NCBI GenBank assembly: GCA_964016885.1
Contig: OZ024747.1
Location: forward strand, 64,232,001-64,296,000
DNA: 64,000 nt
DNA from: Eledone cirrhosa
Taxonomy: Eukaryota
Direction of reading: 5' to 3'
Made by a program: the position numbers and the translations under genes. Positions 3,150 through 59,175 of this stretch are shown here, piece after piece; the first letter of the stretch is position 1; each line of letters begins with the position of its first letter. The notes under the pieces were generated by a model. It ran no database searches, was not told the DNA's origin, and was given only the letters and a program-made list of their open reading frames with translations.

Positions 3150-3530
3150 ATGCTGAGAGAAAGGAGTACTCAATACCGAAGTAGAATTTTAACATTCATT
3201 TTATTAAGGCTAAATAGTGAGTCTTGTTTCTTTGGAGTTTCGCAGGGTCATCAGACTAGATGTAACATTTCCATATCAGATAGTGTATAAATAAAAACTC
3301 GATATAGGGGAGGGGGGATTTCAAACAGCCCTATCCTCTCCCATTGCCACTAACACCCTGTCTACCATATCTTAATTACTCTTCCACAATTAAATCCTCC
3401 CCTCCCATCTCGTGTTTTCCTTTATTTATACTGTCTGCTATCGAAACGCTAGTTGCTGTCTGCCGTCACTGTGATAAACAGACAAAACTCCAGAGTAACA
3501 GGACTCAGTATTTTGCCGTAATTAAATGAA
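3150..3530. mobile_element. Fold-back PLE mini-insertion (family B), decayed hammerheads in both arms
   Basis: 3195-3295 is the reverse complement of 3420-3530. Minus strand CTGATGA-ccctg-c-GAAAC-tccaaa. The tail matches 27320-27370. Confidence 0.75.
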
Positions 3531-3839
3531 TATATATATATATATAAAATTAGAATTTTATACACACACACACACACACACACACACACACACACACACA
3601 CACACACACACACACACACACACACACACACACACACACATATATATACACACACACACTCACACACACACACACACATATATATATATATATATATATA
3701 TATATATATATTAAAATTTTGATTAATACGTGAAATTAATATTGTCTGACAAATGCACAGGTAAACCAGAATGCTAAAAACACTTACTCTGTGTGCGTGT
3801 GTGTGTGTGTGTGTACGCGCGCACGCAGGTAAATAATTA

Positions 3840-4229
3840 CGAGGGCAATCCCAATATTGCAACTTCCGATATTACAACTGTTCTGTTAAAATCCTGTGGA
3901 TGGTGCTTTTGGAAACCTCAGGAACCAAAATGCAGAGAGCTTCCAGAGTGATCCGCCGAGCTTTACGCATGTTTTCATCGGAAAGAGACCTTACTTTTGG
4001 GATTGCCCTCGTTTATAATAACTGCGCGAAATTCGCACTTGGCGGTAGCGTTCAACGGGTGCTCCATTCTCAACGGCTGCCAAGCCCAGATTGAGCATCC
4101 CAGCGAAGCACGCGCATGCTTGTTTGGGAGTGAAGGAAGTACCAATCGCAACAGTGTTGCCAATAGCCGTACGAAGAGTTTCTCTGCGTCCCCATCGCTT
4201 TGGAGACCTTAATTTTGGGATTACCCTCG
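3840..4229. mobile_element. Tc1/mariner-type non-autonomous element (MITE)
   Basis: TIRs cgagggcaatcccaa / ttgggattaccctcg with TA on both sides; an extra right-end TIR copy at 3985-4011. Confidence 0.75.
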
Positions 4230-4794
4230 TACATAGCTAGATACATAGAGTTAGATATTCAGACAAAGTTAAAATTGTTTAAGCGTGTAAGAATACGTTG
4301 CTGTGAGAAGCGGATTAATAGGAACAAATTCTAGAGAGTGGAATTGACAACTTCGAAAGTAAGTTATCAAAGATAATAAACAGAAATATGCAATATATGT
4401 TTCTATTAACAAATAGTTTATAGATCACAATTTTACATGAAATATTATATGTTATGTTGACGTGGTAAATGACTTCCTTTTGAAAAATGTTGAGAAGACA
4501 CTCCAACACCCATAAAAAATGTTTCTCCTATCGTATGTATCTATCGTATGTGTGTGTTAGCAGTAATAGAACTGATAAAATGCATTCCATTAATGTCCAC
4601 AAGAATTTTGTGTCCATCAGGCATAGTGTACTATTTAATATGTCCTATTTCTATAGCTTAGGAACGTTTTTGCAAAGCCAGGATAATGCAAGTTAGAAAT
4701 AAAGAATGAAACTATAGTATAACACGTACAAAGGAAAATAGTTGTATCTTATCTTACCTGAAATATATCTTGCATTTTAGCAGCTTTCAACAAA

Positions 4795-5065
4795 TCGTAC
4801 CCATATATTCCACAATGCTTAATATAAAATCTATTACTTTATATACGTAGTTTCAAAATATACAGTACACCACACCACATCTTTATCTTTGTTATAAAGA
4901 ACAAAAAACGTTTATAATTTATCTTATATTCCCTTATAATAATTCATCTTTTATTAGCTTACTTTTTTGCGGCTTTTCCTAAACTCGTAGCCATATATTC
5001 CACAATGCTTAATATAAAAGATATTATTTTGTATGTGTTGTTTCAAAATATACAGTACACCACAT
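4795..5065. repeat. ~85 bp direct duplication (period ~191 bp)
   Basis: tcgta(c/g)ccatatattccacaatgcttaatataaaa...gtttcaaaatatacagtacaccaca at ~4795 and ~4986. Confidence 0.85.
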
Positions 5066-6857
5066 CCTTTTCAATGTCATCAAAATCTATTTTATAAAGG
5101 TAGGAATTCTATTTTGTAACTTCATAAATGTTTTGTATGTATACATTTAATTCAAGTTACTACAAAGTCATTTAATGAGTAAGAGAAAAATAATTGAGGA
5201 TAGCTTTATCATTCTAATTGGCTCTCAGCACAGCTTCCTGCCTTTTGTTCTACAATGGTCTTAAAATCATAATAGAAGATACAAAATGACAAATAATACT
5301 CAGTGTTTTCTCATTTTCCTTCTCTCTAAGTGTTTGTCAATATTTACTACATTATTACTACCGTCGATTGTTATTGTAGAGTTTTTAACATGATAACGAC
5401 AGCAACTTGATAACACTAATTATGTCTAGCAACATGCTTATATTTGTTTTTAGAATTTAATCTTAACGTCGTGGCATTGTTTTCAATTTTGAAATTAGTT
5501 ATCTCTTTCTTCTACAAAAACAACGAATGAAGAATAGAAAAATTCAATCTGTGAATGCCTGTCACATGTTTACAGATTACTGAATAAAACAAAGAATAAA
5601 CATTGTAAAATAATAAGAACGGGAACATAATCGTTTACCATAAGAAAATCTAATTCAATTTATATTTTCAATCAAGTAGAAGAGTTAATTGCTTTAAGAA
5701 TAGTTTTGTTTTGCTGAACAATAGACACAAACTATTCTGGATTCAATTTCAATACTGAAAATTTCTTAAAGAAACAATAAAACATAGAATGAGGAATAAT
5801 GACAATAAAATGAACATATTGGAAACATATTTTTATGATAGTATCTTTTGCTTTTGAAATGAATCAAAGAAATAAACGAAAAAAAAAAAAAAGAAAAAAC
5901 TTGCAAGTCATATATATTTTATTCTGTAATATATTCCTCATGAAATAGAATATAAACATTGACATTTAATTCTGTCTCCCCCCTAAAGCAGTTTTGTTGT
6001 ATTTGTTTTACCCTATGTGCGCTAAAATTTATATCGTATAGATGAGGATAATAACCTGAGCCATAGCATTCAGAAACCAGTCTGGTCGTTCTGCTTGAAC
6101 AGGCAAAAGCTGATAGCTACACGAAAAATTGTGAAAAGCAGCGGTGGAATATTTGACGCTAAAATTATGGGTATATTTATTAAAGATTTGGTAGTCACAA
6201 TATGAGAAACGGAAGTAAATATGTAGGCTCGCACTCAACGCTGGTAATATGCACAAACTACATGTGAAATGCATGCATTGACAATGTCGATCTGAAATGT
6301 CTGTTCCTTATGGTGCATATGTATATGATATAATTCATTTGATAAAAACAATCTATGTGTAATACTTGCCCAATGTATAATACTTGCTCATATCGCGACC
6401 TAATGATTGCAAAAGGAATTTCTTAACAATTAGTTCATACTGCGTTCAGTGTATATATGTATATATGTCTGTTTGTGAGGGATTTTGTGCTAGTGTACAC
6501 CATATAAATTTTCATAAGCACGTCTCACTACATCTCCATCACAATTGTTTATGCTTTTAAATCTATGTCCGAACAGTTACTATTTACGATCTGGACTAAC
6601 AGCTGTATTTCACAATTTTGAAATTATAAAGGAAAGATATTGAAATGATATACACTTTCTACCGATAAAAGTATAAAGTATGGCGCGAGATGGGGAGATT
6701 TCACTGCTCTTTCATGCACAGTCACTGTTAATGGTTTATATATTCATATAATTTCATTATCTCTTTCTATATATATATACATTCGCATGCACATATATAT
6801 ATATATATATATATATATATATATATATATATATATATATATATATATATATGTATA

Positions 6858-57384: not shown

Positions 57385-57792
57385 GAGAAAGGAGAGAGTG
57401 AAAACAAGAAAGAAGGAGAGAAAGAAAGAGAGAGAGAGAAAGAGAGAGAGAGAAAAAGAAAGAGAGAGAGAGATAGAGAGAAAGAGAGAGATAGAGAGAG
57501 AGAGAGCCACTGAGAGAGAGAGAGAGTGTGTGAAACACTGAAAGGGAGAGAGAGAGAGAGAGAGAGAGAGTGAAAGTGAAACACTGAAAGAGAGAGAGAG
57601 AGAGAGACAAAGCCACTGAGAGAGAGTGTGTAACACTGAAAAAGAGAGAGAGAAAGAGTAGAGAGAGAGAGTAGACAGAGACACTGAGAGACATAGAGAG
57701 AGAAACACTGAAAGAGAGAGAGAGAGAGAGAGAGAGAGAGAGAGAGAGAGAGAGAGAGAGAGAGAGAGGAGAGAGAGAGTAGAGAGAGAGAG
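57385..57792. repeat. (GA)n array punctuated by recurring CACTGA
   Basis: Directly visible. Confidence 0.9.
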
Positions 57793-58249
57793 CGGGATGG
57801 CCAGTAGGACTTGTTGCCAGGGGCAACTTTACAAGAGTAATTTGCATTCTGATTTTGAATATTTCCACGTCGAATGCAATGTTTCTTCATGGACATCATA
57901 TCCGCTAGAATTTTCTCGCAGCATTCACCACGCTCACTCCCCTTATTATACCCCGCCACCAGCATTAACATCCATTCTCATTGTCATTATTCTCGCTAAC
58001 ATCATTATTGTCATCTTCATTATTCTATCCAATCACAAGCAGTAGTAGACTAGAAATGTTATCCTATGTTTTGAACGAAAGCACAGATGGTATTTTAATG
58101 ACTTCGATATGCAGTATTTCTGCATTAATAAGCAGACAGCCAGAGATACACTGAAGCAGATTTACAGGTGTACATATACACAGAAATCAAGCTGTGGCCT
58201 TCGTTAGAGTCATATATTAGACACACACTCTCATACTTAAACTGACGCT

Positions 58250-58605
58250 CGATAATACGCCAATAAATATTGATTGATGGCACTCCGTCGGTTACGTCGA
58301 GGAGTGTTACAGTTGATACGATCAACGGAAAACCTGCTCCTGAAATTAACATGCAAGTGGCTGAGCATTCCTCAGACACGCGTACCCTTAATGTAGTTTT
58401 CAGGGAGATTCAGCGTGACACAGAATGTGACCAGGCTGGCCCTTCGAATTACAGGAATGAACTCATTTCTTTTTTTCAGCTGAGTGGACTGTAGCAACTT
58501 GAAATAAAGTGTCTTGCTTAAGGACACGACGCGCCGCCGGGAATCGAACTCACGACCTTACAATTGTGAGCCAAATACCCTAACTATCAAGCCATGCACC
58601 TTCAC
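58250..58605 (-). mobile_element. tRNA-derived SINE, second family
   Basis: gggaatcgaactc (B box, reverse) and gaaataaagtgtcttgcttaaggaca; matches 42082-42200. Confidence 0.7.
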
Positions 58606-58889
58606 CAATCAATATATATACATACATGCATACATACACATAACACATCTGCTTTAGATTATAGTCACAATTCCAATACGTACACACATATGCAGATATA
58701 TATATAAACATTTACAAACAGGCATACATACAGAGAGAAATCAAATTGTGTCTACATTATATTCAAGAAATGTGCGTGTAGTATCACTAAAAGCTTTCTC
58801 CGATAATGTATTAATATATATATATATATATATATATATATATATATATATATATATATATATATATATATATATATATATATGTATAT

Positions 58890-59175
58890 AATATTTATTC
58901 GAGTATGAGTTGGTTAATTACCGACACTTCAGTATGCAGGCTAGAGCACTCGGGGAAGTGTGGAGGTAGTGCTCCTTACTCCGGAGTATATTTAAAAACA
59001 AGAAGTGTAAGTCAACAGGTTAAAAGTAACATCGTTTATTCATATTCGCTGATATATATATTTCGGTGATAACCATTATGTAACACATGTTGCATTATGT
59101 AACACATGTTGCACCGAAATATATGTAACGTTAACTATGAATAAACGAAGTTAATATTAACCTGTTGACTCACAG
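58890..59175 (-). mobile_element. Fold-back PLE mini-insertion (family I-like)
   Basis: agtcaacaggttaa...tttcggtg mirrored by caccGAAAtatatGTA...ttaacctgttgact. Tail GAGTGCTC-tagcctgcatactgaagt resembles 24820. Confidence 0.7.

Follow-up and report, generated by a model that had tools for sequence, protein, structure and literature searches.

Among Penelope-like elements, the Hydra clade (Craig et al. 2021, PMC8557442) is characterised by a single ORF whose C-terminal part is a GIY-YIG endonuclease, by RWK, DKT and CxCx5C signatures, and by a hammerhead and (TA)n targets; the passages of that paper on the hammerhead and the tail describe the former, give the latter as 30–40 bp and do not describe hairpins, though the consensus file published with it shows them. 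Biochemistry is at hand for a Poseidon element, Poseidon_Ac (Frangieh et al. 2024), in which in vitro reverse transcription has two starting points within the RNA, one at either end of the tail, and requires downstream RNA, and for which a protein dimer is predicted; an AC-rich stem-loop within the ORF holds these starts, and the parts of the paper drawn on here define no conserved cis-motif (PMC11167929). In stringent LINEs (ZfL2, UnaL2) and in their SINEs, 3'-tail stem-loops are bound by the element's own RT protein (PMC4176376, PMC1636434); in LINEs there is one such stem-loop, 5' of a terminal start, and it is itself copied (PMC4176376).

Here we consider a window of 64,000 nucleotides (the whole stretch analysed) in which a short motif near the 3' ends of several repeat families turns out to be one strand of a predicted hairpin. 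The host element shares the Hydra-clade features listed in PMC8557442, with tails that, at ~55–150 nt, exceed the 30–40 bp given there. Common to these elements and Poseidon_Ac, as the latter is described in the cited parts of PMC11167929, are two end classes around an optional extension, AT-rich targets and an upstream hammerhead; the difference is that here the non-coding leader holds two copies of a defined hairpin, with a constant distance between each end and its hairpin, and the RCUC/GAGY motif is absent from the Poseidon stretch in Fig. S1 of that paper. As in LINE 3' tails there is a small stem-loop in the element's RNA, its binding by protein being in our case predicted. We nevertheless reject assignment to the LINE/SINE type, as the hairpin here is present in two copies, each 3' of an internal end site; and, in contrast to the LINE stem-loop, the conserved letters lie in the stem base and flanks while the loop is free. 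The preliminary description knew of no account of the motif, and our literature search, which covered few subscription papers and few Repbase reports, likewise found no description.

The host element and its relatives

As far as their reading frames tell, the ORF-linked motif families are the 3' ends of Hydra-clade Penelope-like elements. A single 776-aa ORF at one locus (L307) combines an RT with a GIY-YIG endonuclease in C-terminal position, according to a structural model and a fold search that places the predicted fold closest to telomerase RT, and matched no family in Pfam. Its residues RVRWK, ADKTS, CNCHLPERC, CRLC and CNH agree with the Hydra-clade description, and the ORF of the autonomous family has RWK, DKT, the CxCx5C linker and CxxC plus CxH, with no CCHH; CxCx5C is also present in ORFs linked to families A, C and F and absent from the family D stretch examined. 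The element carries, as read from the sequence, a type I hammerhead near its 3' end and uses (TA)n targets. In the window it is represented by the following features.

21393..23703, plus strand: Hydra-clade Penelope-like insertion, 5'-truncated and frameshifted, between (TA)n runs
21393–21528: inverted arm of this insertion, ending at the proximal site
Direct arm of this insertion: RT end and endonuclease (22342–22791), 3' UTR, hammerhead and tail, with the distal end at 23703
23378..23500, plus strand: autonomous family, putative type I hammerhead with a ~100-nt insert in stem II, recognised by its sequence; no Rfam match at gathering score
23844..23886, plus strand: minimal type I hammerhead, family D

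The tail at 23618 had at first been ascribed to Naiad, a clade with an N-terminal endonuclease and no canonical hammerhead; we withdraw that assignment, the endonuclease being C-terminal and a hammerhead present. A non-LTR retrozyme, built of tandem hammerhead monomers of 170–400 nt, was also considered and rejected, since the copies are 5'-truncated, often inverted ends of ORF-bearing elements. Nor are the families unrelated, as had been thought: A, C, D, F and the autonomous family lie at the ends of ORFs that are 24–54% identical in the C-terminal region. They do not form one recently diverged, alignable lineage either, the outcome that would have undone the earlier proposal, with only the pairs A/A2 and I/I-like aligning among the nine window tails. 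These are old relatives whose tails can no longer be aligned, so that the motif is conserved rather than convergent. Families B, I, I-like and A2 have no ORF link, B showing one weak, non-adjacent match among 30 loci and the other three being represented by short stretches only. A first metagenome scan with a single protein query and a viral scan gave no matches.

From a short motif to a bulged hairpin

All eleven strings reported in the preliminary description are present at their positions, GAGNNCTC at ten and the 9-mer GAGTAACTC at 23618. The window holds 20 copies of GAGNNCTC (doublet shuffles, n=300: mean 4.8, maximum 12), and 17 of the 20 lie 25–85 nt from a (TA)n run, which ranks first among 64 spaced palindromes. 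The proposed enrichment near (TA)n was borne out in 1.2 Mb of independent genome, namely two 600-kb samples of genome G000: the first had 35 of 101 GAGNNCTC sites near (TA)n (rank 1/64), and the second 21 of 69 (rank 2/64, after CGC..GCG, of which 9 of 27 sites lie near (TA)n; median 0.07). Positional counts in G000 are driven mainly by a few families.

Other particulars fared less evenly. The distance of 35–80 nt before (TA)n is close to what is seen at nine of the eleven sites (34–78 nt), but the site at 3164 lies at 13 nt and that at 17092 has no run within 190 nt; a hammerhead upstream, with an intact CTGANGA core, accompanies only four of the eleven listed copies, the core being found elsewhere among the copies of B, D, F, I, I-like, A2 and the autonomous family; and the TAT(C/T) context holds at five of the eleven sites and fails at the rest. 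The variable centre is partly single-copy mutation, as comparison of copies reveals: all seven other A2 copies read GAGTACTC, most family D copies have GAGTGCTC, and in the autonomous family the other copies have GAGTAACC... and not GAGTAACTC. The bare 8-mer is also unspecific, matching in the window at 2803 within a repeat end that looks LINE-like by eye, and it misses true sites that deviate from it, at 14768, 27339, 42464, 59832, 53214 and 51664, which had been overlooked.

What the families share is a larger structure. The GAGY motif is the 3' strand of a predicted bulged hairpin and not a palindrome; the order is 5'-RCTC, a variable inner stem-loop, a 2-nt bulge and then GAGY-RCTY. The copies in the window, all hairpin 1 unless stated, are these.

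7849..7876, plus strand: family A; ACTC, TACT stem, TT bulge, GAGT, ACTC; the predicted fold agrees
6907–6934 (minus), 14768–14795 (minus) and 42464–42491 (plus): further family A copies
11296..11323, plus strand: family A2; a T-to-A change in this copy breaks the outer pair
3164..3187, minus strand: family B; inner stem TAC-TTCG-GTA (C-UUCG-G loop)
27339–27362, plus strand: second family B copy, GGGT variant
13756..13804, plus strand: family C; compensated outer stem GCTC/GAGC
11470–11518 (minus), 11572–11621 (minus) and 11999–12048 (plus): further family C copies
23923..23946, plus strand: family D; bulge of 1 nt
24358–24381 (minus) and 51459–51482 (plus): further family D copies
17092..17115, minus strand: family F
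24797..24827, plus strand: family I; the single-strand fold favours another register in this copy
58944..58987, minus strand: family I-like
23558..23626, plus strand: autonomous Hydra-clade family; long inner stem, beginning 7 nt past the proximal end site
59832..59855, plus strand: family missing from the preliminary description; GCTC/GAGC
53214..53244, minus strand: further family; GCTC/GAGC, GG bulge
51664..51690, minus strand: hairpin variant; compensated inner pair of the outer stem, GTTC/GAAC
53046..53067, plus strand: decayed copy of a further family, other copies of which read ACTC-TGC-TAT-GTA-TT-GAGT

As covariation shows, the outer stem of the predicted RNA form, RCUC/GAGY, has 4 bp; on its 3' side 2 nt bulge out, the first of them U, the inner stem-loop is constrained in neither sequence nor length, and the stem is followed by unpaired RCUY. 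Across 37 non-redundant motifs four positions form Watson–Crick pairs in 33, 33, 27 and 20 cases (shuffle means 22.3, 16.2, 12.2 and 9.3); in a 31-row alignment 97% of cells are paired, a level reached in none of 500 shuffles, and RNAalifold recovers the same outer stem. Besides the GTTC/GAAC copy listed above, compensated variants are GCAC/GTGC at two loci (L291, L294) and GCCC/GGGC at the 5' end of Hydra-1_Crog, the last read by eye. Outer-pair covariation is mostly a split between G000 (A-U) and other sources (G-C) and thus amounts to few independent events, and 3 of 25 motifs from outside sources have an A-C mismatch at that pair. Single copies fold no more stably than shuffles (z −1.7 to +0.6), four of nine folding otherwise, and Rfam 15 gave no match in the window at gathering score.

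Two hairpins and two ends

In the tandem unit the order is ORF, 3' UTR, hammerhead, ~40–55 nt, hairpin 1, 30–60 nt, hairpin 2 and ATG, the last interval being ~12–45 nt, or ~70 nt in family A. Relatives from other samples supplied 26 non-redundant leaders, of which 19 have two hairpins in the stretch from hammerhead to ATG and 24 have at least one (shuffle means 0.13 and 2.0). These counts use a sequence-only descriptor, since a stricter one that requires two inner pairs finds two hairpins in 10 of 31 and misses many second hairpins. The hairpin is also present in published coral, sea-cucumber and copepod consensus sequences: both copies in Hydra-1_Ajap, one each in Hydra-2_Amil and Hydra-2_Ajap. 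Hydra-1_Amil has a weak motif only, and Hydra-1_Obim shows none. Six 9-mers compared with the consensus files in the supplement of PMC8557442 gave seven matches, four in Hydra hairpins and three in apparent coding regions of Naiad or Chlamys entries; for the Naiad and Chlamys consensuses, line breaks and variants in the files may hide further matches, and the comparison extends to few Naiad ends.

In G000 a second hairpin just past the long end had been predicted beforehand, and it was found for A (6 nt past, L324), C (6 nt, L047) and the autonomous family (5 nt, L304/306/307/310), in each case followed by the ORF start. For family D no hairpin 2 of its own was found, its sole run-through copy (L385) looking nested, and B, F, I, I-like and A2 have no run-through copy among the loci examined. 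A two-motif pattern run on the genome matched mostly a satellite and yielded one useful locus, L324.

Insertion ends fall mostly 6–8 nt upstream of hairpin 1 or hairpin 2, which gives a short and a long end class, mostly at a TA of the element. In 32 of 48 junction families that have the motif in the next 96 nt, it lies at 4–10 nt (binomial p ~3e-25), these 32 including one nested join and about two apparent loose matches in other repeats. Inverted single insertions combine one short and one long arm in 76 of 78 cases. A suspected third end class proved to be a nested non-Hydra element.

A proposed two-start model and its alternatives

The earlier suggestion of a shared cis-element tied to 3'-end formation is supported, and recognition by the RT/endonuclease, also proposed then, is the best reading. 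Since ends lie ~6–8 bases before either hairpin, the hairpins are likely docking sites that would direct the element's telomerase-like enzyme to the point where copying begins. We consider it likely that the hairpin pair in the Hydra-clade leader binds the element's RT-endonuclease on RNA, each hairpin setting one internal RT start. One protein subunit would grip each hairpin and its endonuclease would nick the (TA)n target; the nicked 3' end would anneal to the UA immediately 5' of the hairpin and extension would run away from the hairpin, so that on this proposal no RT would copy the hairpin to which it is bound. Both target strands would be primed, one per site and probably by a dimer, giving head-to-head arms, one with the tail and the other without. 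The tail would then be the spacer between two RT starts, which would explain what a Penelope 'tail' is, and as it would always include hairpin 1, the motif would lie 35–80 nt from the (TA)n junction. A stronger form, in which the paired identical hairpins are rulers and a dimeric RT-endonuclease holds the two on a single RNA while priming the two nicked strands together, each 6–8 nt upstream of its hairpin, is quite possible, and we put it forward tentatively.

Copying set by distance from a bound helix has precedents. In telomerase template-positioning RNA elements and hepadnaviral epsilon, a helix bound by the RT sets the start or stop of copying by distance, the telomerase boundary element stopping synthesis and the epsilon bulge templating a protein-primed oligomer. 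The likeness to telomerase extends to the element's protein, whose closest solved folds are telomerase RTs; neither type of element has a sequence or family match to the hairpin (Rfam, gathering score). In G000, two end classes also occur in a non-Hydra family that lacks the motif; this, with the Poseidon stretch, means that the clade from which the in vitro support is taken is a different one and uses a different signal.

The hairpin might instead act in DNA, with folded cDNA or a displaced strand bound by the GIY-YIG endonuclease and cut at the TA a few bases off, so that the end classes would be cut sites. Such a mechanism predicts the same end geometry as docking on RNA, and counts of G-U against A-C in the covariation set (8 vs 6) do not separate RNA from the cDNA strand; moreover, recognition by the Penelope endonuclease of D. 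virilis depends on the tail in DNA form (as summarised in PMC11167929), the tail has been explained by the endonuclease resolving the intermediate (in the relevant passage of PMC8557442), and two nested insertions are located at the proximal site. We still think it unlikely, as in the sole element to have been reconstituted RT begins on RNA, at either end of the tail (PMC11167929, in the parts cited) and as there is no excess of tails split from the repeat at the proximal site: only 8 of 95 long arms start there, two of them after a TA run, and tail-only fragments show no spike. A plain double-stranded site is excluded by the variable spacer and the sequence-free, covarying inner stems.

That the hairpins are translation or stability signals for an uncapped, hammerhead-cleaved leader, or host-protein sites whose bound factor blocks or exposes the nearby UA, would suit the placing of both copies within the leader, with hairpin 2 mostly 12–45 nt before the ATG; by itself, however, it leaves unexplained the tight offset at both copies and the mixed arms, and we regard it as improbable.

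Less probable still is the earlier idea of a palindrome, through which GAGNNCTC would let RNA dimerise by self-complementarity or would present a dimeric protein with a dyad in double-stranded DNA. The 8-mer is perfectly palindromic in G000 families A, A2 and B, a G-U centre is possible in D, F and I, and the RCTY after the stem is conserved, but the centre is unpairable in 28 of 31 rows, with no double changes, and 496 of 500 shuffles pair as well; the centre is a C-A mismatch in 26 of the 37 non-redundant motifs and the last base may be C, T, G or A, whereas pairing with the upstream RCTC covaries. Chance or passive inheritance of a remnant of recent common ancestry, amplified by few high-copy families, fits the dominance of the G000 counts and the two alignable pairs of tails, but is hardly credible for a motif that distant relatives carry in duplicate in their leaders, with stems that covary, and that is present in families whose proteins have diverged so far.

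Significance

Penelope-like elements are the closest mobile relatives of telomerase, and the hairpins bear on how such an element chooses its own RNA and why a tail stands at one insertion end only. The in vitro work of 2024 gave two internal starts and, in the parts cited here, no signal (PMC11167929); the hairpins offer a concrete candidate signal with a testable geometry rule. They also provide a marker for assigning orphan (TA)n-flanked repeats to the Hydra clade, with ~230,000 pattern matches in G000 (230,892, against 20,067 with a reversed control), and might serve as a tag by which such an enzyme could be sent to an RNA of choice. If the ruler reading is true, integration would proceed from two starts under a portable, loop-tolerant cis-signal used across several animal phyla, and this would account for both the tail and the head-to-head structure of Penelope insertions.

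What are the repeats that carry the motif?

The short (TA)n-flanked repeats are the 5'-truncated ends of Penelope-like elements. Hydra-type ORFs in a sample of the genome (G000), traced to their 3' ends, lead to families A (L047, L126), C (L144), D (L123), F (L070) and three more, while no ORF link was found for B, I, I-like or A2 among the loci examined. The preliminary description called these families otherwise unrelated, but the C-terminal regions of A, C, D, F and the autonomous family share 24-54% identity with one another; among nine window tails just the A/A2 and I/I-like pairs align. 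The autonomous family had been taken for Naiad, an assignment at odds with its intact relative L307, whose 776-aa protein has a C-terminal GIY-YIG domain and carries the RWK, DKT, CxCx5C, CxxC and CxH motifs by which section 11 of PMC8557442 defines the Hydra clade. The hammerheads themselves are varied: that of the autonomous family (window 23378-23500) has a stem II insert of about 100 nt, differing between subfamilies, the family C core (L144, minus strand; window 11640-11709) reads CAGAAGA, not CTGANGA, in 32 of 44 copies, and family A, where a core is present, has CTGAGAA or TTGAGAA.

What is the conserved element?

All 11 strings originally singled out are present where they were reported. 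The spaced palindrome GAGNNCTC occurs 20 times in the window (shuffle mean 4.8), 17 of these sites lying 25-85 nt from a (TA)n run, and this positional enrichment is real and reproducible elsewhere: in 120 stretches of 10 kb, spread at even intervals over G000 and taken as two 600-kb sets, 35 of 101 sites fell within the band in the first set (top of all 64 spaced palindromes) and 21 of 69 in the second (rank 2 of 64, median 0.07). Other details stood in part, as an intact hammerhead core lies upstream in 4 of the 11 copies and not in the rest, the TAT(C/T) context surrounds five sites and not the other six, and some variants of the supposedly variable centre are private mutations of single copies. 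Window 2770-3105 is a repeat end, presumably LINE-like, in which GAGAACTC occurs by chance at 34 nt from a (TA)n run, and a high-copy SINE-like family (8029-8222, 10537-10927, 14129-14325 and about 12 more) has no relation to the motif.

The palindrome reading itself does not survive: in a 31-row alignment of natural copies it scores at or below its own shuffles, whereas a bulged hairpin covaries. In family-level views each GAGY is preceded by RCTC, the two being separated by a short inner stem and a bulge of 1-2 nt, and the outer pair changes in concert (ACTC/GAGT in A, B, D, F and I; GCTC/GAGC in C and others). In that alignment 97% of cells are paired, which 0 of 500 shuffles reach, with double changes at three of five pairs, and genome-wide the hairpin pattern has 230,892 matches against 20,067 for its reversed control. 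Among 37 non-redundant motifs picked by sequence alone, Watson-Crick pairs number 33 at the outer position and 33, 27 and 20 at the first three inner ones (expected 22.3, 16.2, 12.2 and 9.3, from shuffles that ignore kinship), the outer signal mostly reflecting a difference between G000 and the other sources; when the count is restricted to the 25 outside motifs, inner pairs still number 22, 19 and 12 against 10.8, 7.7 and 6.4 expected. The structure rests on this covariation, because single copies fold no more stably than shuffles. In a 58-bp satellite repeated in tandem over at least 10 kb (G000:C1:14233474-14243331; L325-L353), the unit holds a hairpin motif resembling that of family A together with a TATA stretch.

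Do insertions end at the hairpins?

Elements end at a short site before hairpin 1 or a long site before hairpin 2, the stretch between being the tail. Among 358 junctions of ten reference families, 153 are short, 165 long and 40 other (140, 160 and 14 of 314 when a nested-join reference is left out). When 112 junction families were compared with copies that run through the junction, the motif lay within 96 nt in 48, and in 32 of these, one a nested join and about two apparently loose matches, its offset beyond the junction was 4-10 nt, usually 6-8; the run-through sequence begins with TA in all ten outside cases with an offset of 6-10 nt. The model predicted beforehand that another hairpin would follow closely after the long end. 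In G000 this held for family A at L324, a tandem in head-to-tail order with a downstream ORF that shares 99% identity with another A copy, for C at L047, and for the autonomous family at four loci, with the ORF start next in each; none was found past the long end of D, and the check drew on run-through copies, of which B, F, I, I-like and A2 had none among the loci examined. Of 78 head-to-head single insertions, some at loci picked by a tail-containing or endonuclease query, 76 pair a short with a long arm, two are short+short and none long+long. At L143:4200-4450, and apparently also at L385, an element has landed in a copy of another family, exactly at its proximal end site, so that the end of the one now adjoins the hairpin of the other.

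How widespread is the duplicated hairpin?

A protein-alignment scan of metagenomes and assembled genomes gave 93 loci, with 31 hammerhead-to-ATG leaders, 26 of them non-redundant. At least one motif is present in 24 of the 26 and two in 19 (shuffle means 2.0 and 0.13, respectively); of the seven with fewer than two, one rests on a hammerhead of another type that had been assigned wrongly, and the others show variant, ambiguous or cut-off copies. Judged from these sequences, the duplicated hairpin is present in many animals. The published Hydra-1_Ajap consensus has both at its start, ahead of the ATG, Hydra-2_Amil and Hydra-2_Ajap have one each at the end, in Hydra-1_Crog the hairpin at the 3' end is mismatched and that at the 5' end compensated, that of Hydra-1_Amil is weak, and none was seen in Hydra-1_Obim. 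Loci L289-L303, Hydra-type Penelope-like elements flanked by (TA)n, lie on contigs assigned to prokaryotic genomes and most likely represent animal DNA that ended up in those bins.

The motif looks Hydra-specific, because it was not found in the Poseidon stretch in Fig. S1 of PMC11167929, at the ends of Naiad and Chlamys consensus sequences (9-mer search) or in the tail of a hammerhead-bearing family from G000:

L041:778-1102; window 33538-33613: Penelope-like family outside the Hydra clade, with a canonical C-terminal GIY-YIG and two end classes separated by 56 nt

Clades outside Hydra may rely on signals of their own. This family's tail and those of its relatives have a YTYGCWAAACWAA-like word in common, and copies L367 and L376, which run through the long end, show a similar word beyond it; the word is a candidate signal for that clade.

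What might the hairpins do?

Frangieh et al. (PMC11167929) showed that a Poseidon element starts reverse transcription in vitro at two internal RNA sites bounding the tail, requires RNA downstream of these starts, and cuts and extends both target strands, its protein being a predicted dimer. The hairpins are likely the missing positional signal for the Hydra clade. Going beyond the layout, covariation and end geometry that we observe, we infer RNA binding, a role for each domain and a dimer: one subunit would bind each hairpin, the nicked (TA)n end would pair with UA 6-8 nt upstream, and synthesis would proceed away from the hairpin, with both strands primed, one per site, giving mixed short and long arms. 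Distal reverse transcription would read through hairpin 1, because most long arms (76 of 95 start more than 15 nt upstream of it) run past the short site. The main rival, that the endonuclease reads a DNA hairpin in place of RNA binding, predicts the same end geometry, and a comparison of the RNA strand with the cDNA strand favours neither of the two.

Penelope-like elements were already known to have a tail, two starts and a hammerhead, the Hydra clade is likewise established, and RT-bound stem-loops are described for LINEs (PMC4176376); for a duplicated bulged hairpin 3' of each internal start we found no description in the literature searched and no Rfam record. It is a real, widely conserved and apparently undescribed cis-element, and the mechanism that we propose for it is open to direct testing.
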